From IMG/VR virus record IMGVR_UViG_3300045988_105143, positions 722 to 64,721 of that record: 64,000 nt of DNA. One strand, written 5' to 3'. The notes beneath the pieces are model-generated. The model saw nothing but the letters and a program-made list of their open reading frames with translations. It did no database searches and was not told the DNA's origin. Position 1 is the first letter of the stretch. Every line of letters begins with the position of its first letter. The translations under genes were made by a program, and so were the position numbers. The DNA comes from a virus. Of the stretch, positions 3,377 to 50,652 are shown in pieces.

Positions 3377-4455
3377 TGGGCAAAAAAGGCGGTTCTAGTT
3401 ATCATGAACGCCCTCTATCCGAAGAGGAAAAACAGCTTTTAAGACAGCAACAAATATATTTGTCTTCCATACAGCCTAGTATTGATAAGCTAGTATCACG
3501 TGGCACTCAACTGTTAGACAATGTAGTCAACCCAGACTGGCAATCAATTTATAATAGGACAATTAATGACCTAGACGGAATCCGCAAAGAACAGTCAGAA
3601 CTAGCAACAGGCAAATTACCACAAGCGTATGCTAATGCAAAAACAGACTACTTTAACCGTATCTACGAAAATACAATGGGTCAACAATTATCAGCTATGG
3701 CTAAAAAAGGTATAGTAGATAGCTCAAGATTTAATACTGCCACAAACGACATGCAGAAAAATATGGCGGCACAAATGTCGAAAGACTATACTGACGATAT
3801 TAAAACACAAAGTGGTTTATTAGACCAAAAATATCAATTTGCACAAAATCCTATGGAATTAGCTCATAAAGCAAACAAATATTCATTTGGTAATCCTGAG
3901 CAATATTTACAACTTGCACAGGGGCAAAACAAATCAAATACAGAGGCTATCCAATCTACTGGTCAACTTAACAACGGTCGTGGTTATGTAACCCAAAAAG
4001 GTTCTGGTTTCTTTGGTGGCTTGATGCAAGGTGTTGGTGCATACTTAGCATGTTTCCCTGCTGACGTTACTATTGAAACTGATTACGGTTATATCCCTAT
4101 CAATGAAGTTCAAGTTGATGATATTGTAGTGTCTAAAGATGGTATCGAGAAGGTATTAGAAGTTGTAGAGTGCGGTGAGCATGAAACTATGGTAGTAACG
4201 ACAGACAATCACCAAGTCGAAACCACACATACTCAAACAGTCTGGACACGTGAAGGATTAAAAGCTATTGATGAGCTAGACCTCGGTATGGAAATATTAA
4301 CAGATAGTGGCTTTGAACATATCACAGGCTTTACAGGCGGTCGTATCGTGCCTGTTTATGAATTGATATGTACTGGCTCTAATTTATTCTATGCGAATGG
4401 TATCGTAGTAGAAGGTTTTAATGAGGAGGATTTAAATGCAGGTTATTCCTTATAA
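3376..4455 (+). CDS. virion protein with C-terminal Hint (hedgehog/intein-like) autoprocessing domain
   Basis: GGGAGG ribosome-binding site. From Cys226 (codon 4051-4053) the sequence runs CFPADVTIETD... (intein block A), ...TTDNHQV... (TxxH block B), ...VYELICTGSNLFYANGIVVEGFN (block F/G-like). There is no downstream extein. Confidence 0.7.
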   Translation: MGKKGGSSYHERPLSEEEKQLLRQQQIYLSSIQPSIDKLVSRGTQLLDNVVNPDWQSIYNRTINDLDGIRKEQSELATGKLPQAYANAKTDYFNRIYENTMGQQLSAMAKKGIVDSSRFNTATNDMQKNMAAQMSKDYTDDIKTQSGLLDQKYQFAQNPMELAHKANKYSFGNPEQYLQLAQGQNKSNTEAIQSTGQLNNGRGYVTQKGSGFFGGLMQGVGAYLACFPADVTIETDYGYIPINEVQVDDIVVSKDGIEKVLEVVECGEHETMVVTTDNHQVETTHTQTVWTREGLKAIDELDLGMEILTDSGFEHITGFTGGRIVPVYELICTGSNLFYANGIVVEGFNEEDLNAGYSL

Positions 4456-4861
4456 CCCACAGACTGACCCTTGGTACCAATTTGGTAATGCATTGGCAAA
4501 TGGTCTTGGGTTACTTGCTGACAATAGACTAGCCAGAGGGGAAGCTAAAAATATTAATAGCGAATTAGCATCTGACCAAGCAGGCAAAATGCAAGGTTTG
4601 TTTGACCAAGTACGTTCTATGGATTCTATTGGTCCAGATGATTCCAAAGCGTGGAATGAAGCTACTGCTAAATTAGGTTCTATGGGCTATAATGGACCGA
4701 CTATTACAAGAGATAATAGAGCACAAATTCAAGATGGTCTATTAAAACAACAAGAATATTGGGGTAATTTTGATAGATTTAATCAAGGTAAGAGATTCCA
4801 TGATAGTGAATATCAAGATTATAATAAATATAAATTAGGTATGCCAGGACTTTTAGGTTAG
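4436..4861 (+). CDS. hypothetical protein (141 aa)
   Basis: GAGGAGG ribosome-binding site. Overlaps the previous gene by 20 nt in the structural operon. Confidence 0.6.
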   Translation: MQVIPYNPQTDPWYQFGNALANGLGLLADNRLARGEAKNINSELASDQAGKMQGLFDQVRSMDSIGPDDSKAWNEATAKLGSMGYNGPTITRDNRAQIQDGLLKQQEYWGNFDRFNQGKRFHDSEYQDYNKYKLGMPGLLG

Positions 4862-14583: not shown

Positions 14584-15114
14584 ATGATTTATTCACTTAA
14601 TGATATTGAATATATGGCAAGTAAATGTAATGCACAAAGCATTACGCTCCATTGGGGAGCAAATTGGTATGATAATACCTCTGAACATTATCATATTAAC
14701 ATCCTTGGAGATGGAACAATCTATTCAGACTATGATAATCTTGATGTTACTTGTAGCCACACTTGGCACAGGAATACTGGTAATATTGGTATTTCTTTAT
14801 CTTGTATGGGTGACGGTAGCATTTGGGCTGATGGTACTATCCAATGGGGTTCGGCACCTCCAACAGATGCTCAAGTTGATAAAATGGCGATGGTTGTAAA
14901 CGCTATTTGTAAAGCCAAAGGTTGGGATATTAATTATGACCGTGTAAAGACTCATGCAGAATGGGCTGATATCGATGGATACGGCATCCATGATAATGAC
15001 CCAGATATGCGTTGGGACTTACTAGCTATTCCGCAAGAAGCTGGAGACGGAGGTGACATTCTACGTGGTAAAGCAATTTATTTCCAACATCACCCAGAAT
15101 TATGTAAAGACTAA
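14584..15114 (+). CDS. N-acetylmuramoyl-L-alanine amidase (PGRP/Amidase_2-like) endolysin
   Basis: AGGAGG ribosome-binding site. Motifs HYHINILGDGTIY, SHTWHRNTGNIGISL and KTHAEWA resemble the T7-lysozyme/PGRP fold. Confidence 0.6.
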   Translation: MIYSLNDIEYMASKCNAQSITLHWGANWYDNTSEHYHINILGDGTIYSDYDNLDVTCSHTWHRNTGNIGISLSCMGDGSIWADGTIQWGSAPPTDAQVDKMAMVVNAICKAKGWDINYDRVKTHAEWADIDGYGIHDNDPDMRWDLLAIPQEAGDGGDILRGKAIYFQHHPELCKD

Positions 15115-15655
15115 TATAAGACTAATCGGTTTTGTATTTATTCTTTTAATTGCGATATTTGCCCTGTATGGTGGTTATAAATTATTCCATAGGGAAACTA
15201 TCGAGGAACATATTAAAACGCCTCCTATGGGCAAAATAACGAATTTTATGGGTACTCAAAACACCAAGACAACAGTTGGATATGTAAAAAAAGAATTTAT
15301 TAATGGGATTAAAGAAGATACTGATGTCGAGGCAAATATAGAGCAGCCTAAAGTCACAGTTAAAGTTAATGGTAAAAAACAACAATTTGACTTGAAGCAA
15401 ACAGAAACAAAAAAATTTGAAGATGGTAAGGTTGTGGTAGACCAAAAATCAGAAGTTACATTTGATGTAAAGGTTCCAGACCGCCATGAATTAAATGTAT
15501 ATGCTCAAGAAGAATTCCGTGCAGGCAAATTTCATCATCAAGTAGGTGTAGAAAAGGAAAATGGTAAATTTGTATATGGGGCAAAATATGACTTTGTAGA
15601 CAAAGAACCTTTCTACTATGCACGCTATAACCTTGTAAAGATGTACACAAATTAA
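15053..15655 (+). CDS. membrane-anchored protein after the endolysin (possible lysis accessory)
   Basis: GTG start with GGAG 6 nt upstream. N-terminal transmembrane helix IRLIGFVFILLIAIFALYGGY. Overlaps the endolysin 3' end. The start is uncertain. Confidence 0.45.
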   Translation: MTFYVVKQFISNITQNYVKTNIRLIGFVFILLIAIFALYGGYKLFHRETIEEHIKTPPMGKITNFMGTQNTKTTVGYVKKEFINGIKEDTDVEANIEQPKVTVKVNGKKQQFDLKQTETKKFEDGKVVVDQKSEVTFDVKVPDRHELNVYAQEEFRAGKFHHQVGVEKENGKFVYGAKYDFVDKEPFYYARYNLVKMYTN

Positions 15656-15656
15656 T

Positions 15657-15683
15657 GGGGACGATATGTCCCCTCTTTTTTTT
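15657..15683 (+). terminator. rho-independent terminator
   Basis: GGGGAC (15657-62) pairs with GTCCCC (15668-73), followed by TCTTTTTTTT. Confidence 0.8.
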
Positions 15684-15699
15684 ATGCCCATTTTAAAAC

Positions 15700-15708
15700 T
15701 TCATCAAA
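15700..15708 (+). promoter_or_regulatory. TTCATCAAA upstream box
   Basis: One copy lies 17 nt upstream of the -35 at 15726. The same 9-mer recurs at 15789-97, 30985-93 and 30996-31004, with the variant TTCATCGAA at 15778-86. Confidence 0.4.
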
Positions 15709-15725
15709 TCTTCACAAAAAAGTAT

Positions 15726-15754
15726 TTGACAACCGAAAAATTTTATGGTATAAT
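15726..15754 (+). promoter_or_regulatory. sigma-A-type promoter (first of a tandem pair)
   Basis: TTGACA 15726-31, 17-nt spacer ending TGG, TATAAT 15749-54. Confidence 0.75.
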
Positions 15755-15777
15755 ATGAATATACAATATTAGAAAAC

Positions 15778-15797
15778 TTCATCGAAATTTCATCAAA
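15778..15797 (+). promoter_or_regulatory. paired TTCATC(G/A)AA boxes, 11-bp phasing
   Basis: TTCATCGAA 15778-86 and TTCATCAAA 15789-97, immediately upstream of the -35 at 15805. Confidence 0.4.
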
Positions 15798-15804
15798 TTT
15801 TCAC

Positions 15805-15833
15805 TTGACAAACCATTTTCGTTATGGTATAAT
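15805..15833 (+). promoter_or_regulatory. sigma-A-type promoter (second of a tandem pair)
   Basis: TTGACA 15805-10, 17-nt spacer ending TGG, TATAAT 15828-33, then ACAG as in most other copies. Confidence 0.8.
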
Positions 15834-15865
15834 ACAGACAAGGAAAAGTGAAATGAGGTGACAAA

Positions 15866-16072
15866 ATGTCAAGAAGAAAATACAAAATCAACAAAAACAC
15901 TGGAGTTCATTTAGTAACTCATACTAGACAAACTGAAAAAATTGAGGTATGCTCAGTATGTAAGTTTGGAGAATTAACAAAAAATAATAAAGAAGTATTT
16001 TGCATTAAAAAGGGTATATTCAAGCCGTGCAAGTCTTCTCGTATATTAAAATGCTTTGTTCACAAGCAATAA
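15866..16072 (+). CDS. small Cys-rich protein (68 aa), possible zinc-binding
   Basis: GAGGTG ribosome-binding site. Basic protein with CxxC plus three further Cys residues. Sits directly upstream of the structured non-coding element. Confidence 0.55.
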   Translation: MSRRKYKINKNTGVHLVTHTRQTEKIEVCSVCKFGELTKNNKEVFCIKKGIFKPCKSSRILKCFVHKQ

Positions 16073-16083
16073 ATAAGTGAACC
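16072..16083 (+). repeat. 12-nt direct repeat AATAAGTGAACC (left copy)
   Basis: Exact copy at 16651-16662. Together they bracket the G+C-rich element. Confidence 0.7.
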
Positions 16084-16470
16084 TCGAACCTATCTTGGAA
16101 TACGGCATAGCGTTACTTCCGAACGGCAAACCAAGGCACTACGAAGTAAACGTATGATAGGTAAGAGTAAAGAAAACGCACTAATCAAGCGTAGCATATG
16201 GTGGCATACAATTATGCAAACATCGAGGTCCTGGTAAAACCGATGTAAAAGAAATAACAGCACCCGTTTAGCGAGCGTGGTGATAGGCGTTATAGGCTCG
16301 GCGGTACAGCTACCTCGATTCCTTAGTTCCCCGTCCTGGCGTGGCAACGATGAGAGCCTATGTGATAAGGCACCAGATAAAGACAGACCGAGGCTGGTTC
16401 GCTTGAAGCGAGAATCATCGTAAGGTGCACAAACACCAAGCCCCCGAACATGGGGGCAGTGCACCCAGAC
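16084..16470 (+). ncRNA. candidate large structured RNA (class unknown)
   Basis: About 390 nt, visibly much richer in G+C than its surroundings, with no credible ORF. Many complementary segments: 16094-98/16131-35, 16222-29/16312-19, 16372-76/16394-98, 16399-16411, and nested 16424-30/16459-65 enclosing 16440-45/16452-57. Downstream of tandem promoters. The 3' boundary is uncertain and may extend to about 16660. Confidence 0.45.
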
Positions 16471-16650
16471 AGAGATTAAAAGATATTATATAAAGTAAAT
16501 AAAAAAATACACGAAGTGTTTCATGAACGAAGTGAATGAACAATAACAACTACTCACAAACAAAGTTTGTTCGTATTCTCGTTACGAGCTAAAGCTCTAC
16601 TCGAAGTATTTCTTTATAAGTTAAAAATTAGATTATCAACATTAGTTGAT

Positions 16651-16662
16651 AATAAGTGAACC
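16651..16662 (+). repeat. 12-nt direct repeat AATAAGTGAACC (right copy)
   Basis: Exact copy of 16072-16083. Preceded by the 8-bp hairpin TTATCAAC-ATTA-GTTGATAA (16633-16652). Confidence 0.7.
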
Positions 16663-16836
16663 AAATACGTCAATAAGTGTTTGGTGAACGTAATCCTCGC
16701 AAACAAGTTTGCTACGTATCACTAATTTAGATAATCTACTTTTACCTAAATTATATCATTAGTATTAAATAAGAACAAATATTAATTACGAAGTCTTTAG
16801 ACAAAGTAATTATGTGAACGAAGTGAGCAAAAGAAC

Positions 16837-16865
16837 TTGACATATAAAAGCAAATGTGGTATAAT
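16837..16865 (+). promoter_or_regulatory. sigma-A-type promoter
   Basis: TTGACA 16837-42, 17-nt spacer ending TGG, TATAAT 16860-65, ACAG. Confidence 0.8.
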
Positions 16866-16886
16866 ACAGTTATCAGGAGGTGAAAG

Positions 16887-17114
16887 ATGTATAATCTAAC
16901 TTTAAAATTCAATTTAAAAAGCAATAAAACAGCAATTTTACATTCCCAATTAAAAAGTATGGCTGATATTACATCTGAAGTTAAATATGTGATAGCCTGC
17001 ATTAACGCAAAGAAAACTATTTGGACATGCGGAACTAGCATTGATACTAATATTATCAAATCATTCGAATGGGAATATGAAGAAGACATGTTTAAGGAGA
17101 ATAAAAAGGAGTAA
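16887..17114 (+). CDS. hypothetical protein (75 aa)
   Basis: AGGAGG ribosome-binding site 7 nt upstream. First gene after the promoter. Confidence 0.6.
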   Translation: MYNLTLKFNLKSNKTAILHSQLKSMADITSEVKYVIACINAKKTIWTCGTSIDTNIIKSFEWEYEEDMFKENKKE

Positions 17115-18470: not shown

Positions 18471-19228
18471 AAACAATAAAATGTCGAGCTATATAGAAAT
18501 ATATAGTGTTAAGCCTCGTGAACCTTATAGCAAAAAGGGTGTGCCGAAAGGTGCTAACGGTGAAACTCCTTATAGGACAACACCGTGCTAAGAATTCACA
18601 GTCACGGATTGGAGGTTTACATGAAAAATGTAAAAGGATATGAAGGGCTGTATGCTATCACAACAAACGGTGACGTATGGAGTTATAAGTCAAATAAGTT
18701 TTTATCTACATTTGCAGGTAAAACTTCAAATTATTTGCAAGTAAAATTAACTAAGAACGGCGTAAGGAAACATCATCTAGTTCATCGTTTAGTTGCTTTA
18801 ACTTACATTGATAATCCAGATAATTTACCTGAAGTTGACCATATTGATAACGACATACTTAATAACAATGTTAGTAATCTAAGATGGATAACCAGAAAAG
18901 GTAATTTATATAAGTCTTATAACACGATGGGACCGACTAGGAACCATAGGGTATGTTATGTATATAAGGACAATAAATTTATTGGGTTATTTAACTCTGT
19001 TTTAGAAGCGGCTAGATTTTGTGCAGAAGAATTTGGTTTATCTAAATCTTCTTTAGCAAAATATAGAAAAGTTAAAAATGTTAAAATAGTGGCTGTGAAT
19101 TAAAGTGTAACGACTAGCCCAAAGGGGCGTAGGGTGGGTATTGCTCCATTCGAAGTGCGAGGGACCTAAGTCATTTATGATATGGTTAAGAGATAGTCTA
19201 CTCCTTATGGTAACATAAGGTATTAAGG
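18471..19228 (+). mobile_element. group I intron interrupting dnaE (boundaries +/- a few nt)
   Basis: Exon 1 ends in U (..CCAGAT) and the insert ends in G (..TAAGG). Joining 18470 to 19229 restores LPD|IDCDV, conserved in DnaE. The insert is G+C-richer, carries an S-like element AAGAGATAGTC (19188-98) with a possible P7 partner GACTA (19112-16), and contains an HNH ORF. Confidence 0.75.
18621..19103 (+). CDS. intron-encoded HNH homing endonuclease (NUMOD4 + HNH_3 type, I-HmuI-like)
   Basis: GGAGG ribosome-binding site. GYEGLYAITTNGDVWS is a NUMOD4 motif. HHLVHRLVALTY...VDHIDNDILNNNVSNLRW is an HNH motif. Confidence 0.85.
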   Translation: MKNVKGYEGLYAITTNGDVWSYKSNKFLSTFAGKTSNYLQVKLTKNGVRKHHLVHRLVALTYIDNPDNLPEVDHIDNDILNNNVSNLRWITRKGNLYKSYNTMGPTRNHRVCYVYKDNKFIGLFNSVLEAARFCAEEFGLSKSSLAKYRKVKNVKIVAVN

Positions 19229-30918: not shown

Positions 30919-30947
30919 TTGACAAACAATCACATTTGTGGTATAAT
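30919..30947 (+). promoter_or_regulatory. sigma-A-type promoter (first of a tandem pair)
   Basis: TTGACA 30919-24, 17-nt spacer ending TGG, TATAAT 30942-47, ACAG. Confidence 0.8.
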
Positions 30948-30984
30948 ACAGGTATAGTCAAGTTGGTGAGGCACAAAGCAAAAC

Positions 30985-31004
30985 TTCATCAAACTTTCAT
31001 CAAA
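30985..31004 (+). promoter_or_regulatory. paired TTCATCAAA boxes, 11-bp phasing
   Basis: TTCATCAAA at 30985-93 and 30996-31004, directly upstream of the -35 at 31011. Same arrangement as 15778-15797. Confidence 0.4.
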
Positions 31005-31010
31005 TAGGGG

Positions 31011-31039
31011 TTGACAAGCACCTCTGGATGTGGTATAAT
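31011..31039 (+). promoter_or_regulatory. sigma-A-type promoter (second of a tandem pair)
   Basis: TTGACA 31011-16, 17-nt spacer ending TGG, TATAAT 31034-39. Confidence 0.8.
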
Positions 31040-32195: not shown

Positions 32196-32268
32196 GGGTG
32201 ATTAGCTCAGCTGGGAGAGCACCTGCCTTACAAGCAGGGGGTCGCAAGTTCAAACCTTGCATCGCCCA
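32196..32268 (+). tRNA. tRNA-Val (UAC)
   Basis: Cloverleaf drawn by hand. Acceptor GGGTGAT/ATCGCCC, anticodon loop CTTACAA, T-loop TTCAAAC. CCA is encoded. Confidence 0.85.
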
Positions 32269-32278
32269 CCATTTACAT

Positions 32279-32365
32279 GGGTGGTTGACAGAGAGGCTTA
32301 TTGTATCTCTTTGCTAAAGAGACGTCGTATAAAAGCGACCACAGGTTCGAATCCTGTACCATCCT
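32279..32365 (+). tRNA. tRNA-Ser (GCU)
   Basis: Acceptor GGGTGGT/ACCATCC, anticodon loop TTGCTAA, long variable arm GTCG..CGAC, T-arm ACAGG-TTCGAAT-CCTGT. CCA is encoded. Confidence 0.85.
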
Positions 32366-32372
32366 CCAACAT

Positions 32373-32445
32373 GGCTCGTTAGTCAAGTGGTTAAGACATC
32401 GCTCTTTCACAGCGAGAACGGTGGGTTCAATTCCCCCACGAGTCA
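32373..32445 (+). tRNA. tRNA-Glu (UUC)
   Basis: Acceptor GGCTCGT/ACGAGTC, anticodon stem TCGCT/AGCGA, loop CTTTCAC. One T-stem mismatch. CCA is encoded. Confidence 0.75.
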
Positions 32446-32603
32446 CCATTCGGTACTTATATACTATTGTTAAAGGCTTGCCATACCATGGGTGTTTTGC
32501 TGTATATACCATTCAACAGCTATATATTAGTTTACAGGTAAAACAAAGCCCTTGTGGGCGGAGACGGTGGGTTCGATACCGACCATATATAGTGGTGTTA
32601 TAT

Positions 32604-32675
32604 TCTTGGGTAGTTCAATGGTAGAGCATCTGGCTGTTAACCAGAATGTTGGGGGTTCGAGTCCCTCCCCAAGAG
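32604..32675 (+). tRNA. tRNA-Asn (GUU)
   Basis: Acceptor TCTTGGG/CCCAAGA, anticodon loop CTGTTAA, T-arm GGGGG-TTCGAGT-CCCTC. CCA is encoded. Confidence 0.85.
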
Positions 32676-32679
32676 CCAT

Positions 32680-32762
32680 GTCGTTGTAGTCAAGATGGAT
32701 AAAGACAACAGACTGTAAATCTGTCGCTTATAGCTTCGGAGGTTCGAATCCTCCCAACGGCA
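32680..32762 (+). tRNA. tRNA-Tyr (GUA)
   Basis: Acceptor GTCGTTG/CAACGGC, anticodon loop CTGTAAA, long variable arm, T-arm GGAGG-TTCGAAT-CCTCC. CCA is encoded. Confidence 0.85.
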
Positions 32763-32768
32763 CCACAT

Positions 32769-32843
32769 GGAGACTTAGCTCAGTAGGTAGAGCAACAGGT
32801 TGAAGCCCTGTGTTTAGCATTGGTTCAATTCCAATAGTCTCCA
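32769..32843 (+). tRNA. tRNA-Phe (GAA)
   Basis: Acceptor GGAGACT/AGTCTCC, D-arm GCTC..GAGC, anticodon loop TTGAAGC, 7-nt variable loop. CCA is encoded. Confidence 0.8.
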
Positions 32844-33004
32844 CCATAAGGTGTAGTCAACCTTAAATCACTTCATCTAAAATGACTCTAAATCCATTCA
32901 TTTAATGGTCGGTATTTTGAGTTTGCCGTTAAGAAGATAACGATATACACTGTTTTTCTGAATTTAAAGAACGGATGTATTTTGTTTTCTTAACTCATGA
33001 ACAT

Positions 33005-33091
33005 GGAAAGTTGGCAGAGTCTGGTTTAATGCAACAGTCTTGAAAACTGTCGAGCAGAAATGCTCCGTGGGTTCGAATCCCACACTTTCCT
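33005..33091 (+). tRNA. tRNA-Ser (UGA)
   Basis: Acceptor GGAAAGT/ACTTTCC, anticodon loop CTTGAAA, long variable arm, T-arm GTGGG-TTCGAAT-CCCAC. CCA is encoded. Confidence 0.85.
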
Positions 33092-33169
33092 CCAGAGCCT
33101 TGATATTGAATTACGGTTTAATATCGCCTATCGGGTTACTTACGGGTTTCTTGGTAGGATAGGCATGTT

Positions 33170-33240
33170 ATGGGTATAGTGTAATGGAAACACGTTGGTC
33201 TCCAAAACCAAAGATAGAGGTTCGATTCCTCTTACCTGTG
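33170..33240 (+). tRNA. tRNA-Trp (CCA)
   Basis: Acceptor ATGGGTA/TACCTGT (two G-U pairs), D-stem GTGT/ACAC, anticodon loop CTCCAAA. CCA is encoded. Confidence 0.75.
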
Positions 33241-33247
33241 CCATATA

Positions 33248-33321
33248 CCCCCTATGATGAAACTGGCAAACATACTGGACTTAGAATCCAGGTTCTGTAG
33301 GTTCGAGTCCTACTAGGGGTA
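33248..33321 (+). tRNA. atypical tRNA with anticodon UAG (Leu codon family) but a short 5-nt variable loop
   Basis: Anticodon stem CTGGA/TCCAG, loop CTTAGAA, T-arm GTAGG-TTCGAGT-CCTAC. Acceptor CCCCCTA/TAGGGGT has a C1:U72 mismatch. 3-bp D-stem. CCA is encoded. Confidence 0.6.
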
Positions 33322-33328
33322 CCAACAT

Positions 33329-33399
33329 TGTGGTGTAGTGTAATGGTAACACAGAAGACTTTGACTCTTCTATTCTAGGTTCAATCCCTAGCACCACTA
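33329..33399 (+). tRNA. tRNA-Gln (UUG)
   Basis: Acceptor TGTGGTG/CACCACT (U1:U72 unpaired), D-stem GTGT/ACAC, anticodon loop CTTTGAC, T-arm CTAGG-TTCAATC-CCTAG. CCA is encoded. Confidence 0.75.
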
Positions 33400-33406
33400 C
33401 CAATAT

Positions 33407-33480
33407 TGCGGAGTAGTCCAATGGCAGAGACACGAGTCTCATAAGCTCGTATGGTGTGGGTTCAAGTCCCATCTCCGCTT
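33407..33480 (+). tRNA. tRNA with CAU anticodon (elongator Met or Ile2)
   Basis: Acceptor TGCGGAG/CTCCGCT (U1:U72 unpaired), anticodon stem CGAGT/GCTCG, loop CTCATAA. Lacks the three G-C pairs of initiator tRNAs. CCA is encoded. Confidence 0.7.
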
Positions 33481-33486
33481 CCACAT

Positions 33487-33559
33487 GGTCTCATGGAGTA
33501 AGGGTTATCTCGTCACCCTGTCAAGGTGAAGACTACGGGTTCAAATCCCGTTGAGACCG
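33487..33559 (+). tRNA. tRNA-Asp (GUC)
   Basis: Acceptor GGTCTCA/TGAGACC, anticodon stem TCACC/GGTGA, loop CTGTCAA, T-arm ACGGG-TTCAAAT-CCCGT. CCA is encoded. Confidence 0.85.
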
Positions 33560-33707
33560 CCAGACCTCTTGGGGGCTTACGATACTATAAATCTTTTCTC
33601 CTTTCAATTTATAGTCGTATCCCCCTATATGAGGTGTATCATGGTGAGATTAAGGTAACACCTTATGAACGCCCTTATAAAATTAAATTTATTAAAGGAG
33701 GTTTTAT

Positions 33708-39936: not shown

Positions 39937-40360
39937 ACCAGGGAGGAGAAAGGCTCGTCCTTTAACTCATAAACAGCATGTTTATGTACAGACAAAGATA
40001 CTTACAGGCAGTAAAAAGGAGGCTCTAAGAGTGGCAGGTTATCCAAAGGAAGGATACAACGTTGAAGATAGCAAGGCTGTACAAAAAGCATTGGCGGACT
40101 ACAAAGACCGTATGGATAAAAAATTCAGAGACAAAGCTGACAAGGTGGCTAATATCTTATTAGATATTATAGAAAACCCTGATACTCCTGCTAAAACGAA
40201 GGTATCCGCAATTAAAGACTGGCTCGATAGAGCAGGCTTAAAACCTGTTGATAAACAAGAGGTAGAAGAAAAACGTTCTATCGATACATCGAGCCGATTA
40301 AGTAGAGACTTAATCAATAAACTAAATATGCTACCAGAAAAAGAAAAAGGCGAGGTATAA
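39923..40360 (+). CDS. terminase-small-subunit-like HTH protein
   Basis: ...LTHKQHVYVQTKILTGSKKEALRVAGYPKEGYNVEDSKAVQKAL resembles Terminase_2 N-terminal helix-turn-helix domains. The start could be the TTG at 39917. Confidence 0.4.
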   Translation: MPRYKPGRRKARPLTHKQHVYVQTKILTGSKKEALRVAGYPKEGYNVEDSKAVQKALADYKDRMDKKFRDKADKVANILLDIIENPDTPAKTKVSAIKDWLDRAGLKPVDKQEVEEKRSIDTSSRLSRDLINKLNMLPEKEKGEV

Positions 40361-40378
40361 TAACCTCGCCAATTTTTA
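40349..40378. terminator. bidirectional rho-independent terminator at the convergence point
   Basis: GGCGAGGT (40349-56) pairs with ACCTCGCC (40363-70). An A-run lies upstream and a T-run downstream, so a U-tract follows the stem on both strands. Confidence 0.75.
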
Positions 40379-40381
40379 TGT

Positions 40382-40594
40382 TTAATTATTTATATATAGG
40401 TTTTTAATAATATATAGTCTATTTTTATCTGCACGAAAATTAATTAAATGCGTAGTGTATGAGCTTGTCAGTTCTTTAACGTCTGTGGTGTCGTAAAATA
40501 AAACGTGAGTTTTACCATTTAATATCCTATGGGTATTGCAGAACTCATAATAGCTACAGCCTGATTGGTATATATAATTAGTTTTTTTATTCAT
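40382..40594 (-). CDS. small protein, YxIKxxY-family paralog
   Basis: GAGGGA ribosome-binding site. C-terminus ...NRLYIIKNLYINN. Confidence 0.6.
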   Translation of the reverse strand: MNKKTNYIYQSGCSYYEFCNTHRILNGKTHVLFYDTTDVKELTSSYTTHLINFRADKNRLYIIKNLYINN

Positions 40595-40796
40595 ATTGTT
40601 CCCTCACAATGTATAAATTACGACAATACGCTAAATGGTCTCCGTCCCAATATGCTTTTCCTGTATCCAGTTCTTGTTTAAGGAATATACCTTCAAATTC
40701 AACAACATCTGTATGCATTTTTAATGGTAGTGTAGTTGTTGTAATCAAGTTATATGCACTAGGCAATGTATCGATATATTTATATTTCATGTACAT
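40587..40796 (-). CDS. small protein, YxIKxxY-family paralog (variant YIVREQY)
   Basis: AAGGAG ribosome-binding site. C-terminus ...RNLYIVREQYE. Confidence 0.55.
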   Translation of the reverse strand: MYMKYKYIDTLPSAYNLITTTTLPLKMHTDVVEFEGIFLKQELDTGKAYWDGDHLAYCRNLYIVREQYE

Positions 40797-41005
40797 AACT
40801 CCTTATATAATTCCTGTATTGTATATATGTGATATTCACGTGTATGTATTAGATATTTACTACGAATCTGGTGAGTGTGTGAGTTGGAATACCTGTATAA
40901 GTCACACCATTTCATAAAAACACTCTCACCTTCTATTACCATGTCTTTTGCTCTAATTAACCAACAGTCATTTCGATTAAATACGTGATATACTATGTAG
41001 TCCAT
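40787..41005 (-). CDS. small protein, YxIKxxY-family paralog (variant YTIQELY)
   Basis: AAGGTG ribosome-binding site. The N-terminus MDYIVYHVFNRNDCWLI parallels the next paralog. C-terminus ...HIYTIQELYKELCT. Confidence 0.55.
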   Translation of the reverse strand: MDYIVYHVFNRNDCWLIRAKDMVIEGESVFMKWCDLYRYSNSHTHQIRSKYLIHTREYHIYTIQELYKELCT

Positions 41006-41021
41006 TTTTAGGCACCTTTTA

Positions 41022-41249
41022 TCATATCATTCTGTACTTCTTTTTAATTTGGTACATATATTTGAGATTTGTATATATCGTACCAGAGATACCATCATAA
41101 CACGTTGTCGTTCCTTGATAGTTGGACACCATTACATTAGTCAGGTATACCGAGTATTTAGTCCCAAATTTATTAACTTGTATCTTATGATTAGTTTTTA
41201 ATATGTAACAATCATCACGACTAAAGATTTGATACGCAATTATTTCCAT
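41022..41249 (-). CDS. small protein, YxIKxxY-family paralog
   Basis: AAGGTG ribosome-binding site. N-terminus MEIIAYQIFSRDDCYIL. C-terminus ...KYMYQIKKKYRMI. Confidence 0.6.
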   Translation of the reverse strand: MEIIAYQIFSRDDCYILKTNHKIQVNKFGTKYSVYLTNVMVSNYQGTTTCYDGISGTIYTNLKYMYQIKKKYRMI

Positions 41250-41250
41250 G

Positions 41251-41403
41251 TTATATCACCTTATATTTTCGTTTAATTCTATACGTCTTATCTCTATCTG
41301 TTGTAATACGTTTTGATTTTGTTCTTACTGTGAGTCTATTTATTCTGGACGGTTTAAATTGGTACAAATCGCAAAATTGCATAAACACAAATTTTTCATC
41401 CAT
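41251..41403 (-). CDS. small protein (50 aa, below ORF-track cutoff), YxIKxxY-family paralog
   Basis: ORF found by hand. C-terminus ...DKTYRIKRKYKVI. The stop lies 1 nt before the next ATG. No clear ribosome-binding site. Confidence 0.4.
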   Translation of the reverse strand: MDEKFVFMQFCDLYQFKPSRINRLTVRTKSKRITTDRDKTYRIKRKYKVI

Positions 41404-41423
41404 GTCAAAATGATCACATTCAA

Positions 41424-41708
41424 TTATCCAACAATCGGACGTATTAAAACCTCCATATCACCACGTAGATTTATAACACGACCATTGATAATCACTTCAT
41501 CTTTGTAAACTTCTTTAACTTGATAAAGATACGCTGTAGTAAATCTAAGACCACTGAGATAGTGTTCGCTATATCCTGAAATCATGTTAGTATATTTTAT
41601 ACATGAAGGTGCTACCATCTCTAAATTACCAGTATGACATTTAATAAATGCTTGGTCTGTAATGATAAATCCAAACGTATCTCCGTTTGCGTGATGTATA
41701 TATAACAT
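41424..41708 (-). CDS. small protein, YxIKxxY-family paralog with C-terminal extension
   Basis: TAGGAG ribosome-binding site. Internal ...AYLYQVKEVYKDE. Confidence 0.55.
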   Translation of the reverse strand: MLYIHHANGDTFGFIITDQAFIKCHTGNLEMVAPSCIKYTNMISGYSEHYLSGLRFTTAYLYQVKEVYKDEVIINGRVINLRGDMEVLIRPIVG

Positions 41709-41709
41709 T

Positions 41710-42009
41710 TTATTCTCCTATATGTTTTAATATTGTTAATGATTTTTGTTCAGTAAATGAACCGTTATAATATTCTTTAATATCATACAGGTTATTGGAC
41801 ATTTGCGAAAAATTAGACCCTATACTAAGTCTATAGTTAGTACCTACATGAGGGGAATACAAAACTACCATGTGTTCAGCTGTATATTCTAATATTTCTC
41901 CGACGTCTATCCTATGACGGCTTTGTTTTAAGCAATTAATATATAATGCAACTGTGTTAGAACCACCAGGATTTGTTAATAAGAATATAATATCGTTCAT
42001 ATTATTCAC
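41710..42009 (-). CDS. small protein, YxIKxxY-family paralog with C-terminal extension
   Basis: Internal ...NNLYDIKEYYNGS. Confidence 0.55.
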   Translation of the reverse strand: MNNMNDIIFLLTNPGGSNTVALYINCLKQSRHRIDVGEILEYTAEHMVVLYSPHVGTNYRLSIGSNFSQMSNNLYDIKEYYNGSFTEQKSLTILKHIGE

Positions 42010-42409
42010 TCTCTTTCAAAATTTTAGATAGTAACTTTTCATCTAGCACCTTTGGTGTATACGTTCTACCGTTATCCATAATTTCCTTATATTTTATCAT
42101 ATCTTCAATAGCCTTAATAAGTGGATAATCTTCTTTATAGACATTATATACTGGTAAGAATAATTCTTGCATATCTTTATTTCTTCTACGTTCCTTAGAT
42201 ACTTCATACAATACCTTAGCGTAGGTATCACCCTGTTCCTGGTCTCCGTCATAGTGATTCTCTACTAAGTGACGGATGTCAGAAATGGCTTTGTCCATTT
42301 CTCCAACACCTTGATACCACTCCATACGAGCTGAGTAAATATAATTCATTACTTCATAAAAACCTATAATCACATTAAACATTTCTTCTTTAGTAAAAGT
42401 CTTTTCCAT
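42002..42409 (-). CDS. hypothetical protein (135 aa)
   Basis: AAGGA ribosome-binding site. Helical, acidic. Confidence 0.55.
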   Translation of the reverse strand: MEKTFTKEEMFNVIIGFYEVMNYIYSARMEWYQGVGEMDKAISDIRHLVENHYDGDQEQGDTYAKVLYEVSKERRRNKDMQELFLPVYNVYKEDYPLIKAIEDMIKYKEIMDNGRTYTPKVLDEKLLSKILKESE

Positions 42410-42420
42410 AGTTTTATTCC

Positions 42421-42654
42421 TTATTCGTTATTAATAATTTCACCATTAATATTTGCAATTTGTACTATACATTTTTTTGCTAACACGTCCTCAGTAATTT
42501 TTAATATATATGGTCTTTGCCTAATGTCTATATAAGTTTTGACCGCACGTGAACCACATACATACGCAAGTACTACTGGAGGCTCTTTCCTACCAAAATA
42601 TTCTGTTAGTGCTTTATTGGTTATCTCTTCTATTTCTTGTAATGTTTTACCCAT
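42421..42654 (-). CDS. hypothetical protein (77 aa)
   Basis: ATG 42654 preceded by GAGGAGAGG. The longer 42672 start lacks a ribosome-binding site. Confidence 0.55.
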   Translation of the reverse strand: MGKTLQEIEEITNKALTEYFGRKEPPVVLAYVCGSRAVKTYIDIRQRPYILKITEDVLAKKCIVQIANINGEIINNE

Positions 42655-42655
42655 T

Positions 42656-42934
42656 TTACCTCTCCTCACCAAATAATATATATTGTAATTGTCCCCATAA
42701 TACCCTAATATCTTGTGTTTTGTATGGTAGTAGGCTGTTAGTGTCTACTATATCAATAATAGTAAATTTCTTTTTATTCCTCATTAACCATTGTAGATAG
42801 TCCCTTGGTAATTGATATCTCTTTTTAAGACTCATACAGTATTGCTCTGCCACTGCCTCTGCAACATATTCTCCGTAGATATAATACAATACTTTATTAG
42901 TCCCTTTCTTCTTGACGGCTAATTTTTTCTTCAT
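42656..42934 (-). CDS. hypothetical basic protein (92 aa)
   Basis: ORF on the coding strand of the leftward operon. Weak ribosome-binding site. Confidence 0.5.
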   Translation of the reverse strand: MKKKLAVKKKGTNKVLYYIYGEYVAEAVAEQYCMSLKKRYQLPRDYLQWLMRNKKKFTIIDIVDTNSLLPYKTQDIRVLWGQLQYILFGEER

Positions 42935-43000
42935 ATCCTTGAGACAATCATTATAATTATTATCAAATTCTTCACTTAAATATCTGCCAAAAAAATCCCA

Positions 43001-44185
43001 TTATAATATTCCTTCGTCTATAATATAATCAATAACAGCTTTTTTAAAACTAGAAGTATTTAATCTATATTCATCAATACTTCCTTTCCCATATAGATAA
43101 AATATAAACACGTCTTCATTTTGCCCTAGTCTATGTATACGGTCTTGAGCCTGTGCTAGTAAAGCAGGCGACCAAGGGTATTCTATAAATACCGCACATC
43201 TACTAGCGGTAAGTGTTAGACCAACAGCACTAGCTTGTAAGCTACAAATAATGATTTGAGTGTCGTGTAATTGGAAGTTATCAATGTTAACTTGCCTTTG
43301 TATTACTGATTGACCACCAACTACTACACTGGCGTTAGGAAAATGCATATGTAATGCTTTGCCTATACTCTTATGATGTACGAATACAACTACTTTTTCT
43401 TCACGCTCTAATAACTGTTTAATAAAATCGATAGAATAGTTTATTTTTTTATATAACACCGCCTTATCTAATCTTTCAATATCGTGAAAACTTCTAGGTG
43501 CAGGTTGATTATACTCAATAATCGGTATTGGTACTATAGTTTTGTTTGGTAATTTGTTTTCTAAATCTCCTTTCGTGCGTCTAAGCCAGATACTATTCAT
43601 CGTATCGTGTAGTTCCTGGATATTTGAACAGCCACTATAATCAACGCCATACTGGCTATATCTAGGATTACAATACGTATCTAGGAATTTTTCTCTACCA
43701 CCTACCTTGTGTATATTATTGAGAATTTCCATTTGTGTAACAAGTTCACGAGGTCTATTTAACATCGGAGTACCACTAATCAATATCTTATATGGTATTT
43801 TCTTAGACCATTCTAATGCTAGTTGAGTTCGTTTACTTGTTTCATTTTTAAATGCATGACTTTCATCAAGCACTAATTGTTTTATTGGTAAACGCTGGAT
43901 AATAAATTTATACTTATTCATTCTTTCATAGTTCGTAATAATAATATCTTGTGTCAAGTTATCTATCGGTATTCTTCTACCAGTCCACCTCTCAATCTCC
44001 TTGCTCCAGTTTAATTTAAGGGAGCTAGGACAAATTACTAAAATCGGGAATTGATTACGAATAATCATAGCTTCTATCACAGTCCTGGTTTTACCCATTC
44101 CCATGTCATCACAGACAAAAGCTGACGAATTATTTAATATAAAATTTACACCCTCCTTTTGATGGGGTAATAGTGGCGATTTCAT
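43001..44185 (-). CDS. minimal SNF2-family ATPase/helicase (394 aa)
   Basis: Motif I DDMGMGKT, motif II LVLDESHAFKN, motif III SGTPMLNRPRELV, motif VI QAQDRIHRLGQ. Confidence 0.9.
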   Translation of the reverse strand: MKSPLLPHQKEGVNFILNNSSAFVCDDMGMGKTRTVIEAMIIRNQFPILVICPSSLKLNWSKEIERWTGRRIPIDNLTQDIIITNYERMNKYKFIIQRLPIKQLVLDESHAFKNETSKRTQLALEWSKKIPYKILISGTPMLNRPRELVTQMEILNNIHKVGGREKFLDTYCNPRYSQYGVDYSGCSNIQELHDTMNSIWLRRTKGDLENKLPNKTIVPIPIIEYNQPAPRSFHDIERLDKAVLYKKINYSIDFIKQLLEREEKVVVFVHHKSIGKALHMHFPNASVVVGGQSVIQRQVNIDNFQLHDTQIIICSLQASAVGLTLTASRCAVFIEYPWSPALLAQAQDRIHRLGQNEDVFIFYLYGKGSIDEYRLNTSSFKKAVIDYIIDEGIL

Positions 44186-44238
44186 ATATACACCCGCTTT
44201 ACTTTGTAAAAAATTCTTTCATCACCTGGTTCTAATTT

Positions 44239-44457
44239 TCATGCACTCAGTTGTTGAATATAAACATCAGAAAAGCCACTATCACTAATATACAATATCC
44301 CAGTACCATCATTAAAGCTGTCAACATAAGCCCCGTAATAGCCCTTCCCAATATTAATAATAAATTCATCACAAGCCTCCGTCCCCATAAACGCTAATAG
44401 TGTTTGTCTATGTCTATGTTCATGCTCCATGAATAGATGATATAAATCCATATCCAT
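44239..44457 (-). CDS. hypothetical protein (72 aa)
   Basis: GAGGTGG ribosome-binding site. Confidence 0.55.
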   Translation of the reverse strand: MDMDLYHLFMEHEHRHRQTLLAFMGTEACDEFIINIGKGYYGAYVDSFNDGTGILYISDSGFSDVYIQQLSA

Positions 44458-44466
44458 ATTACCACC

Positions 44467-44700
44467 TCATTTGTAGAATTGTTTAATTTTATATACCCTA
44501 GGAATGTCTGCTGTGTATTTGGTAAATATATTGCTATAGAACATACCCGCTCTATGGGTGTTACATATTTCTATATCGCCTGAACCTGGATTCATATAAG
44601 TTATTTTTAATACATAAATTCTATCAGCAGACTGCATATATATAAAGCAATCATTCTCCTTAAAATAATTGTCGTATCTACGTATACTCATTCCACTCAT
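44467..44700 (-). CDS. small protein, YxIKxxY-family paralog
   Basis: AAGAGG ribosome-binding site. C-terminus ...PRVYKIKQFYK. Confidence 0.6.
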   Translation of the reverse strand: MSGMSIRRYDNYFKENDCFIYMQSADRIYVLKITYMNPGSGDIEICNTHRAGMFYSNIFTKYTADIPRVYKIKQFYK

Positions 44701-44930
44701 TTGAATAACCTCTTTATTTCGTATAGTGACTTAAAATCGTGATGGTATTTCCAAAATGCATTACGGTAGTAATTGTCATATATACATATAGAATCAATTT
44801 CCATTACTAAAGAACCAATATTTACATCTAGTACTGTAAATATGCACCTCGCTATATTATTATTTGTGTCATAATATAGTAGCCTATCACCTGATTGAAT
44901 ATTTTTGTCATATAATTTTATGTCATACAT
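44697..44930 (-). CDS. small protein, YxIKxxY-family paralog
   Basis: AAGGAGG ribosome-binding site. C-terminus ...KSLYEIKRLFK. Confidence 0.6.
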   Translation of the reverse strand: MYDIKLYDKNIQSGDRLLYYDTNNNIARCIFTVLDVNIGSLVMEIDSICIYDNYYRNAFWKYHHDFKSLYEIKRLFK

Positions 44931-45153
44931 TATAAGCCTCCTTTATTTTGAATAAATTATAATAATCATCTTGCTCCTTCCAAAAGGTATATTCTATTAC
45001 ACTTGGCGTACCTGATAAAATCAGAACCTTGAGATAGCTATAACTTAGCCTTTTATCTATCACTTTGAGTTTAAAATATTTACCGCTTTGTGATATAAAC
45101 ATATATTCTTTATTTTCTATAAGAGAATTATCATAAAGTCCTATGGATATCAT
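44923..45153 (-). CDS. small protein, YxIKxxY-family paralog
   Basis: C-terminus ...YNLFKIKEAYNV. Confidence 0.6.
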   Translation of the reverse strand: MISIGLYDNSLIENKEYMFISQSGKYFKLKVIDKRLSYSYLKVLILSGTPSVIEYTFWKEQDDYYNLFKIKEAYNV

Positions 45154-45154
45154 G

Positions 45155-45454
45155 TTAATACCTTTCTTTCAATCTAAGCATATTTTTAATATCTATTATG
45201 TTTTTAAAGAAATAGTCGCGAGAATGTCTGTGATATAATGGATAATGCTCGATACGCATAGCTCGTTCGAGATTATTTATTTCAGTTATCACAAAACTTT
45301 TCCAACCAACATCTGAATCCCATAATATAATATCACCATTTTTGAATAGTTTGTTATAGATATCTCTTTCCTTGTCCTTGTTTAACAGCCCTATATCTAT
45401 GAAGTCTGGGTATGAATATTGAAGTTTTTTCCAACTTTTAAATATCTCACTCAT
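45155..45454 (-). CDS. small protein, distant YxIKxxY-family member
   Basis: C-terminus ...IIDIKNMLRLKERY (degenerate motif). Confidence 0.5.
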   Translation of the reverse strand: MSEIFKSWKKLQYSYPDFIDIGLLNKDKERDIYNKLFKNGDIILWDSDVGWKSFVITEINNLERAMRIEHYPLYHRHSRDYFFKNIIDIKNMLRLKERY

Positions 45455-45612
45455 TGTCTTGCCTTTCTGATAGCCTCATCTATCAAATCTGTTAGTTTTT
45501 CAAAACCCACTGAAAATGTTTCAAAGTCGTCATATCATGTAAAGTCTAAACTATCTTCTACATCATGGACAATTTTATTATATTTCTTTTCATCAATTTG
45601 TATCGTAATCAT
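45451..45612 (-). pseudogene. 53-codon ORF interrupted by one in-frame TGA (codon 26, nt 45535-45537)
   Basis: AAGGAGG ribosome-binding site and TAAATG junction at the start. ATGA overlap with the next gene at the end. The second half has no start codon of its own. Confidence 0.45.
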
Positions 45613-45837
45613 TTAGTATACCTCCTTTATTTTAAATATATAATTTTGTGTTCGACTTGTTTTCAGAAAATGAGAATTACAAAAAGAATCATCTCTAAAT
45701 CTTCTAAATGATATTTGCATATATTGGGATTCTGGCTGTAGATTTTCAACACGAACCTCATAGACCAAATAATTATCGAGAGAGAAAGATTCATATATAA
45801 ATTTATCACCATTTTTGAAAAATTCCTCGTGTGTCAT
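45613..45837 (-). CDS. small protein, YxIKxxY-family paralog
   Basis: GGAGG ribosome-binding site. C-terminus ...NYIFKIKEVY. Confidence 0.6.
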   Translation of the reverse strand: MTHEEFFKNGDKFIYESFSLDNYLVYEVRVENLQPESQYMQISFRRFRDDSFCNSHFLKTSRTQNYIFKIKEVY

Positions 45838-45861
45838 ACTAACCTCCAGAGAGGAAAGGGG

Positions 45862-46869: not shown

Positions 46870-46921
46870 AATATTTCTCCTTTTTCTAAATATAAATTAT
46901 AATATAAAACCAAACCAAGAA

Positions 46922-48607: not shown

Positions 48608-48657
48608 GATATACCTCCATTAATAAATTAAAATACTAAAAAACAGGTTCAGACTCG

Positions 48658-48834
48658 CTACTCCTGCAATAAAAAGATAGCGTTTTGTAAATTCCACACG
48701 CAACTACGGTAGTGCTGTGAAGTCTTTACCATAACACGATGTTCCCCGCCAGTACGGTTTGCAATACGTGTTATATCACGTGTGTCTAACTTACGACCGT
48801 GATTGTCGTCATATGTGAAATACACGGTATCCAT
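48658..48834 (-). CDS. possible small protein (58 aa, below ORF-track cutoff)
   Basis: Hand-found ORF on the coding strand between two genes. Weak ribosome-binding site. Confidence 0.3.
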   Translation of the reverse strand: MDTVYFTYDDNHGRKLDTRDITRIANRTGGEHRVMVKTSQHYRSCVWNLQNAIFLLQE

Positions 48835-48931
48835 ATCTTCGTATACATGGCTCGCAAGGGGAATAACTTGCTTACCCTTTAGTACAGTAAATCACCTGGT
48901 CTTTGCTATACTCTGACAAGCTTTTAACGAC

Positions 48932-49171
48932 TTACTTAGAAGTTTTTTGTTTCACGCTCTCAGGTGTTGAATATTTACAAGAAAAGGCGATAGTTCCTGG
49001 TGAACCACTAAAACTAGTGACTGGGAATACTTTTCCACTACCTAACTCAATAATTTGCCATACTGAGTTCATTGGTTTTTCATTACACATTTTGATTACA
49101 TCACTGCTTGTGTCTGCTGGGACTATTAAAAATGGCTTGCCATTAATTTGAGACTTCAAAATACAATACAT
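48932..49171 (-). CDS. hypothetical protein (79 aa)
   Basis: AGAGGAG ribosome-binding site. Confidence 0.55.
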   Translation of the reverse strand: MYCILKSQINGKPFLIVPADTSSDVIKMCNEKPMNSVWQIIELGSGKVFPVTSFSGSPGTIAFSCKYSTPESVKQKTSK

Positions 49172-49175
49172 GAAA

Positions 49176-49298: not shown

Positions 49299-49394
49299 AC
49301 TGCACTCCTTTCAATAAAAAATACAGGACATACCTATCACCTAGTACCAGGTGAGTAGGTACTCCGTTGGGTTCGTTCCTCAACGGCTGACACC

Positions 49395-50639: not shown

Positions 50640-50652
50640 ACTAATTTATAGC

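Follow-up and report, generated by a model that had tools for sequence, protein, structure and literature searches.

What is encoded by a gene-free interval of ~790 nucleotides (nt) at the boundary of the lysis and replication modules of an uncultivated phage? The question is raised by the 64,000-nt stretch of DNA analysed here, referred to as the window (IMG/VR virus record IMGVR_UViG_3300045988_105143, positions 722 to 64,721), which belongs to an essentially complete phage genome of ~65 kb. From the stop codon of a 68-amino-acid (aa) open reading frame (ORF) at 16072 to a promoter at 16837, the window contains no conserved ORF. A sequence-only reading had interpreted this interval as one large structured RNA behind tandem promoters, possibly a novel one. 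The guanine- and cytosine-rich (GC-rich) half of the interval is indeed a helix-dense, non-coding structured RNA read from the plus strand, as both Rfam matches and a test of base pairing demonstrate. It belongs to two catalogued families, EGFOA-assoc-1 and EGFOA, and its class is already known rather than new, because the matches exceed the curated thresholds across the full models. Overall, the locus encodes a composite plus-strand EGFOA RNA that is exchangeable together with the small ORF, is probably transcribed from two upstream promoters (P1 and P2), and may act in trans.

Two Rfam families in a single RNA

In a comparison with Rfam 15, positions 16049–16298 of the plus strand match EGFOA-assoc-1 (RF02970, hereafter assoc-1) with 293.6 bits (threshold 224.5; E = 1.9e-86) over model positions 1–250 of 250, and positions 16308–16422 match EGFOA (RF02955) with 50.8 bits (threshold 37.7), again over the full model (1–108). 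Separated by 9 nt and followed by a nested GC hairpin, the two matches form one plus-strand unit of ~417 nt (16049–16465). The G+C content is 0.44–0.505 across ~16100–16500 and ~0.26–0.34 in the flanks, close to the earlier estimate of one-half against one-third. The RNA had been thought to start at 16072 or 16084, downstream of the ORF, but it begins at 16049, 24 nt within it. The first 24 nt of the RNA model are the last codons and stop of the conserved small protein gene, and in the loci carrying assoc-1 the motif always starts 24 nt before the small-ORF stop.

The EGFOA score of 50.8 bits marks a divergent member, as other loci reach 72–85 bits. The first consensus hairpin of the model (~28–41) is deleted in the window and in all copies from the phage group, and is kept in Bacillales copies. 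This hairpin is a variable element, and its absence does not exclude membership at 50.8 bits. The invariant core (CCGUC, UAAAG, and ACC..GG) is present as invariant alignment columns, together with the closing helix and the internal hairpins.

Within 15650–17000, all other Rfam families produce only chance-level matches up to E ≤ 10. At this cutoff no match is found to GOLLD, ROOL, OLE, raiA, HEARO, RNase P, transfer-messenger RNA (tmRNA), group I or group II introns, or riboswitches. The search thus lends nothing to the kinship with the giant GOLLD and ROOL RNAs that had been considered, while the reported lack of RNase P and tmRNA signatures is borne out, for tmRNA also by ARAGORN, which found none.

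Both motifs stem from a 2017 survey of 224 candidate RNAs, neither of them being discussed in its main text (Weinberg et al., PMC5737381). Two EGFOA RNAs have been visualized by cryo-electron microscopy (cryo-EM), one as a trimer and the other as a strand-swapped dimer, in a study in which the family figures as putative small RNAs of unusually large intergenic regions and is given no function (bioRxiv 10.64898/2026.07.01.735769).

Base pairing is conserved on the plus strand

The Rfam helices of assoc-1 and EGFOA, a pseudoknot, and the nested terminal hairpin were scored together in 10 window-type variants. The proposed pairs are held in 97.8% of 852 cells, against 30–40% in controls whose partners were slid by 1–3 columns, a percentage that owes much to invariant columns among closely related variants. 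Eight pairs are altered on both sides, and all one-sided changes yield a G-U pair on the plus strand, where the other strand would carry an A·C mismatch, which argues for a plus-strand RNA. The nine helices of assoc-1 are 94–100% paired, with two covarying pairs in helix 7, and those of EGFOA are 100% paired, with five covarying pairs. The first assoc-1 hairpin (GUUCAC/GUGAAC, 16058–16082, plus strand) carries the ORF stop UAA (16070–16072) in its loop, and a hairpin at or over the ORF stop codon is found in every allele type.

The EGFOA core is closed by a 5-base-pair (bp) pseudoknot, in which the 5′ tail (CCUCG, 16313–16317) pairs with the large loop (CGAGG, 16389–16393). This pairing, which is not in Rfam's EGFOA structure line, is formed in 16/16 diverse sequences with two covarying positions. 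Seven covarying forms occur among phage, bacterial, and environmental copies of independent lineages: CCCAG/CUGGG, CCUAG/CUAGG, CCAUG/CAUGG, CCUCG/CGAGG, CCCGG/CCGGG, CCACG/CGUGG, and CCGUG/CGCGG. A further observation concerns position 16378, the A immediately 5′ of the invariant UAAAG, which covaries with the middle pair of the pseudoknot (16315/16391) in ~32 of 34 unique sequences. The nucleotide is G where the middle pair is C-G, A where it is U-A, and U where it is A-U, and could participate in a base triple or an alternative pairing register.

Specific to the phage group is an inserted plus-strand hairpin, UCGCU-UGA-AGCGA (16399–16411), in which a UA pair covaries to CG and whose stem takes many other sequences among sister alleles. 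The core is followed by the nested terminal hairpin (16424–16465, plus strand), in which GGUGCAC/GUGCACC encloses GCCCCC-GAACAU-GGGGGC. A C-run/G-run hairpin lies within ~10–70 nt 3′ of the EGFOA core in every locus examined, whether from phage, Bacillales, Paenibacillus, Thermoleophilaceae, or environmental sequence, and the loop of one environmental copy (GCCCCC-AGAACAU-GGGGGGC) is almost the same as that of the window. Since such a hairpin follows the core in all of these lineages, it is a family-wide accessory outside the 108-nt EGFOA model. It is not an intrinsic terminator, in line with the sequence-only reading: the inner stem (16440–16457) is followed by AGUGCACCCAGAC instead of a U-tract, and no plus-strand terminator is listed by the scan in 16072–16886.

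Five helices had previously been picked out by eye. Three of them, namely ACCAG/CTGGT, TCGCT/AGCGA, and the nested terminal structure, are kept in relatives, but two are not. The CTTGG/CCAAG helix has one pair broken without compensation in 8/10 variants, and the 8-bp ATCGAGGT/ACCTCGAT helix has three outer pairs broken in 2–5 of the 10, equally uncompensated. The invariant 5-nt core of the latter, CCUCG, is the 5′ strand of the pseudoknot. An alternative partner proposed for this helix, ACCTCGA (16081–16087), overlaps a different helix of the Rfam model and was not counted separately.

The RNA is exchanged together with a small Cys4 gene

Relatives were found with four queries: a conserved stretch of assoc-1, a pattern for the EGFOA core, the polymerase encoded nearby, and the small protein. 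All four led to contigs of one phage group, mostly 62–69 kb in length (IMG/VR, ENA, Logan, JGI) and originating from human-associated samples. Assoc-1 is present in all 5 IMG/VR pattern loci and in 9 further loci, and EGFOA follows it by 9–10 nt wherever the locus is uncut, namely in the window and in 12 relatives (3 from IMG/VR and 9/9 of the further loci). The arrangement of small ORF and EGFOA is syntenic in more than 30 loci, 233–258 nt separating the ORF stop from the EGFOA core, and the gap left by gene callers 3′ of the small ORF in relatives measures 800–1,100 nt.

Immediately preceding the RNA in every cassette type, the 68-aa ORF (15866–16072, plus strand) encodes a small basic protein with four conserved cysteines (CxxC-13-C-16-C; Cys4). 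It looks like a real gene, given that its length is kept in relatives despite 27 differing codons (13 of them synonymous), that it possesses a ribosome-binding site, and that its four cysteines are near-invariant. The protein family consists of 28 clusters among 5.8 billion proteins, all from the present phage group and unnamed. Sequence searches of Pfam, PHROGs, NCBIfam, and PDB return no match, and the AlphaFold2 model has a predicted local distance difference test score (pLDDT) of 55.6, too poor for a fold search. In two relatives, labelled L008 and L034, the ORF is cut short beside an intact RNA, in one by a nonsense codon at 53 aa and in the other by a frameshift in an A-run. Such truncations reflect either sequencing error or a dispensable protein.

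Sister phages with a polymerase 94–96% identical to that of the window display the same architecture at the same locus, occupied by another allele. This allele comprises a 64–66-aa homologue of the small protein (34% identity, E = 5e-11), a GC-rich 5′ domain of ~215 nt, EGFOA at 72.7 bits, and a GC hairpin. Between the window and relative L007, the flanks are 73–88% identical while the cassette drops to 35–44%. The comparison with L047/L053 yields a different pattern, in which the lysis-side gene is 66–67%, the small ORF 69–75%, assoc-1 89–90%, and EGFOA 76–78% identical, and the AT-rich block that follows the RNA is non-homologous (~39%). Here assoc-1 is the most conserved segment of the neighbourhood (89–90% against 66–75% for the flanking genes). 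As the difference between the two patterns shows, the RNA cassette and the AT-rich block recombine independently, and the small ORF and the RNA constitute an exchangeable accessory cassette at ~15862–16505.

Assoc-1 itself is one of at least two interchangeable 5′ domains. The L007-type 5′ domain has no Rfam match at E ≤ 1 (EGFOA-assoc-2 included) and is a candidate third EGFOA-associated motif. It lies at L007:1138–1355 and is also carried by L016, L017, L021, L028, and others; it is itself structured, closed by a long helix (UGUGUACGG.../...CGUGCAC), and 14/38 of its predicted pairs are changed on both sides.

EGFOA of the phage-group type is additionally present on two very long metagenomic contigs, L091 (BNJT01000377.1, 951,776 bp) and L095 (BNJS01001657.1, 526,736 bp). 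The flanks examined around EGFOA consist of phage genes throughout. These contigs may represent an integrated or host-linked form of the phage, which could identify the host, or chimeric assemblies.

Expression context

Upstream of the cassette, a lysis-side operon with an Amidase_2 endolysin (14584–15114) and a membrane protein (15053–15655) is ended by a plus-strand intrinsic terminator, GGGGAC-GATAT-GTCCCC plus a T-run (15657–15683). Two plus-strand promoters follow, P1 (15726–15754) and P2 (15805–15833), each TTGACA-17-TATAAT with an extended −10 TG and a 12/12 consensus. The tandem promoters described earlier are thus recovered by the scan, with the RNA placed for transcription from both. 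They are accompanied by three plus-strand TTCATCRAA boxes (15700–15708, 15778–15786, and 15789–15797), a motif found 8 times against 1.8 expected. The same boxes lie at 30985 and 30996, ahead of the tRNA locus, and are common to the promoters at 30919 and 31011, in agreement with the earlier remark that the two loci share upstream boxes. A second tandem pair of 12/12 promoters (30919–31039) is found there, accompanied by two copies of the TTCATCAAA box (30985 and 30996); a 221-aa ORF and the array of 12 tRNA genes (32196–33562) lie downstream. This arrangement suggests that the promoters of the RNA and tRNA loci form a shared class with an upstream regulatory box.

The scan found neither a promoter nor a terminator between the small ORF and the RNA, so that the RNA lies in the 3′ untranslated region of the small ORF. 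Downstream, a third 12/12 promoter with an extended −10 TG, P3 (16837–16865, plus strand), serves further small ORFs and the replication module, which contains genes for DNA polymerase III (Pol III) alpha, a Rad52-like protein, and a primase-helicase. In type-D relatives, a clear intrinsic terminator closes the unit after the 3′ block and is followed by a promoter; in these phages, the 3′ block forms one transcription unit with the small ORF and the RNA. Type B and C relatives have no consensus promoter between the 3′ block and the next ORF.

The AT-rich half is a separate module

The sequence-only reading had treated the AT-rich 3′ half as part of a single element. Instead, this block (16505–16836, ~330 nt, 25–31% G+C) is a module of its own that assorts independently of the RNA. 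Folding and comparison delineate about seven plus-strand hairpins (16520–16540, 16546–16579, 16586–16597, 16633–16652, 16656–16689, 16728–16748, and 16783–16812). The block folds with z = −3.73 relative to shuffles, and 11/59 predicted pairs are changed on both sides. Covariation is best at 16586–16597, where GAGC/GCUC contrasts with GGUC/GACC, CAACC/GGUUG, and UCACC/GGUGA. The previously described 8-bp hairpin at 16633–16652 and both palindromic boxes are present. So are the six copies of (A/T)CGAAGT, one of which lies at 16527 and not at 16528; all six are on the plus strand within 16141–16824, where ~0.1 would be expected (scaled from 10.5 per 64 kb). Some of these boxes are hairpin tips, with the stem ending in AC-GAA-GU. 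The alternative 3′ block of other phages opens with the same paired motif.

The 12-mer TGAACGAAGTGA is found at 16524–16535 and 16815–16826, the two ends of the block, and nowhere else in the 64 kb. Its second copy is 11 nt upstream of the P3 −35. What is conserved in TGAACGAAGTGA is the sequence itself and not a set of covarying pairs, so that proteins may bind there.

EGFOA outside the phage group

Isolated phages have no match to 15650–16900 (BLASTN against INPHARED, distant mode), and the closest polymerase of a cultured phage is 38% identical. By these comparisons, the genome is without a close cultured relative. EGFOA copies are found in bacteria, among them Lysinibacillus and Solibacillus (82–85 bits), where an excisionase-type helix-turn-helix gene and two small ORFs are followed by EGFOA, convergent with a tyrosine integrase. 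In Paenibacillus, it adjoins a serine recombinase and an IS110 fragment, and transposases of the IS66 and Mutator families and a methylase of phage/plasmid type occur near environmental copies. The common denominator of EGFOA loci is mobile DNA. The position of EGFOA at the 3′ end of a small-gene operon in Bacillales argues against a classical 5′ cis-regulator.

The small Cys4 ORF was considered as a universal EGFOA partner and rejected, being absent from the Bacillales, Paenibacillus, Thermoleophilaceae, and environmental loci. Environmental EGFOA contigs repeatedly encode another protein, of 300–338 aa (VYHCPFGTIIRNHYTGGEVVQKK...) and without a Pfam match. It is sometimes present as two diverged copies flanking the RNA (L059:1105–2043 and 3860–4762; also L072:2056–2850 and L084:1476–2492).

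Proposed role and alternatives

In the trans-acting RNA that we favour, P1 and P2 would transcribe the RNA together with the 68-aa Cys4 gene. The folded RNA would then accumulate as a discrete species, with the GC hairpin acting as a clamp that protects or defines its 3′ end. Abundant early in infection, it would form a compact particle that acts in trans and engages a host or phage factor. Action in trans rather than in 5′ cis is proposed because the Bacillales EGFOA faces an integrase and has no downstream gene to regulate. Self-association is proposed because EGFOA RNAs trimerise or dimerise in cryo-EM (bioRxiv 10.64898/2026.07.01.735769). The functional product may be a trans-acting, probably self-associating RNA particle, a suggestion that we advance tentatively.

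Several points weigh against such a role. The oligomers have been seen only in vitro and in other EGFOA members, which lack assoc-1. The fold energy of the GC-rich half is unexceptional and does not discriminate between strands (z = −1.76 for plus and −1.67 for minus), and the paired fraction comes from the close relatives described above. We infer promoter use, RNA ends, and RNA stability from the sequence. Finally, with no terminator 3′ of the RNA in the window, the RNA may exist only within a longer transcript, and one extending into the AT-rich block and the replication genes would fit a role in cis.

That role is the first alternative, a long 5′ leader in which the RNA and the AT hairpins would determine read-through into the downstream replication operon or the processing or stability of its mRNA, with processive antitermination and a barrier to nucleases as conceivable mechanisms. 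The lack of a plus-strand terminator from 16072 to the next genes is compatible with it, as are the type B and C relatives without a consensus promoter before the next ORF and the well-folding AT block with its conserved plus-strand hairpins and compensatory changes. We nevertheless consider a leader rather unlikely, as the downstream genes of the window have their own 12/12 promoter at 16837, the type-D unit is shut by a strong terminator before the next promoter, the RNA cassette and the 3′ block assort independently, and the Bacillales EGFOA at its operon 3′ end has nothing downstream to regulate.

The second alternative, which does not exclude the others, is a ribonucleoprotein in which the basic Cys4 protein binds the adjacent RNA as a matched pair. 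Such a pair would explain the joint exchange of small ORF and RNA. It is also consistent with the strict synteny in more than 30 loci, the stop-codon hairpin present in every type of allele, the restriction of the protein family to the present phage group, and the divergence in step of the small protein and the 5′ RNA domain. This joint divergence may be plain linkage, however, and the protein is missing from bacterial and environmental EGFOA loci, is truncated beside an intact RNA in L008 and L034, and has neither a family nor a structural match, its AlphaFold model being of low pLDDT. The matched pair is, on balance, just as doubtful as the leader.

A more elaborate and clearly less probable version sees in the Cys4 gene and the EGFOA RNA a matched pair that confers specificity and is exchangeable as a cassette. 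Its product would be a phage ribonucleoprotein, synthesized early from the tandem promoters, with alleles (the assoc-1 type or the type with the non-Rfam 5′ domain) swapped among near-identical phages under diversifying selection. If true, it might counter host defences through RNA, serve in host takeover, or determine immunity. It would be the first biological role for EGFOA, and would imply that some lineages have a protein partner concealed in their ‘empty’ intergenic regions.

Still less probable is a transcription-primed origin, with the tandem promoters driving a structured pre-primer RNA into an AT-rich unwinding region. The genes for Pol III alpha, the Rad52-like protein, and the primase-helicase follow directly on the locus, and its tandem promoters are succeeded by the ~330 nt of low G+C with repeated boxes and hairpins. 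The C-GAA-G core of the hairpin tips resembles stable DNA mini-hairpins at single-strand phage origins. Against an origin, the cumulative GC skew climbs smoothly through 16 kb with no inflection at the locus, and no iteron array or DnaA-type boxes were recognized. The RNA allele is swapped with the AT block unchanged and vice versa, which argues against a matched primer and origin, and elsewhere EGFOA sits beside integrases or transposases with no replication genes in the stretches examined.

Insertion of a mobile cassette at a duplicated 12-nt target site is highly improbable. The sequence-only reading had noticed that an exact 12-nt direct repeat, AATAAGTGAACC, brackets much of the interval, and its two copies, at 16072 and 16651, are the only ones in the window. 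The repeats are not the borders of the cassette, however, as alleles are exchanged at ~15862 and ~16505. In half of the variants the first copy, which forms the 3′ arm of the conserved P1 hairpin of the assoc-1 RNA, reads AATGAGTGAACC, and 16505–16650 is kept along with the second copy in the sister allele, from which the first copy is missing.

A missed coding region can be dismissed, in line with the earlier judgement that the interval holds no credible ORF: the longest ORF, an antisense frame of 124 aa (16090–16464), is refuted by comparative data, being reduced by indels to 89 codons in L003 and lacking a counterpart in the L007 allele, where the longest stop-free stretch is 68 codons, and substitutions track base pairing rather than codons, with G-U wobbles tolerated on the plus strand only.

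Relation to known RNAs

The window RNA forms all helices of the assoc-1 model, directly 5′ of EGFOA as in that family, which is likewise known only from metagenome-type sequence. The two do not differ in structure; what is added here is the overlap with an ORF, the phage context, and the interchangeability of the 5′ domain. With EGFOA, the RNA shares the core CCGUC...UAAAG..A.ACC..GG, the closing helix, two hairpins, and the unusually large gene-free interval. It differs in lacking the first hairpin of the model and in carrying the extra hairpin at 16399–16411, and its pseudoknot and 3′ C-run/G-run hairpin lie outside the Rfam structure line or model.

ROOL, GOLLD, and manA are also ornate RNAs of phages and mobile elements; a tRNA array is present in this genome, and relatives of the window RNA self-assemble in vitro. 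In contrast to these classes, the window RNA, unmatched to them in Rfam at E ≤ 10, is much smaller (~417 nt) and is located 16 kb from the tRNA array rather than adjoining it. ColE1 RNA II and the T7 primary origin resemble the locus in combining one or more strong promoters, a structured RNA or AT-rich stretch, and adjoining replication functions. They differ in that there is no skew signal here, the RNA and the AT block recombine independently, and EGFOA is found elsewhere in contexts in which no replication genes are seen.

EGFOA is a catalogued orphan RNA with a conserved fold, whose oligomeric structure has been solved since 2026. The present locus adds context and anatomy and not a new class. 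It places a member in a near-complete phage genome with a readable expression context, in the 3′ untranslated region of a previously unnoticed Cys4 gene, and indicates that two Rfam entries and an unmodelled 3′ hairpin behave as a single RNA. It supplies constructs and hypotheses for EGFOA researchers and does not reveal the function.

Other features of the window

Negative GC skew is confined to ~40000–52000 of the window, and this block probably corresponds to a block of minus-strand genes in an otherwise plus-strand genome.

In the replication module, an insertion of exactly 757 nt (18472–19228) separates codons 378 and 379 of the Pol III alpha gene, as judged from the intact 955-aa gene of L007. 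The insertion encodes an HNH/NUMOD4 endonuclease ORF (18585–19103), and Rfam Intron_gpI matches 18991–19220 at a sub-threshold score of 33.3 bits (E = 1.5e-6; threshold 50). Very likely a mobile group I intron, the insertion is polymorphic within the phage group, being also present in L046.

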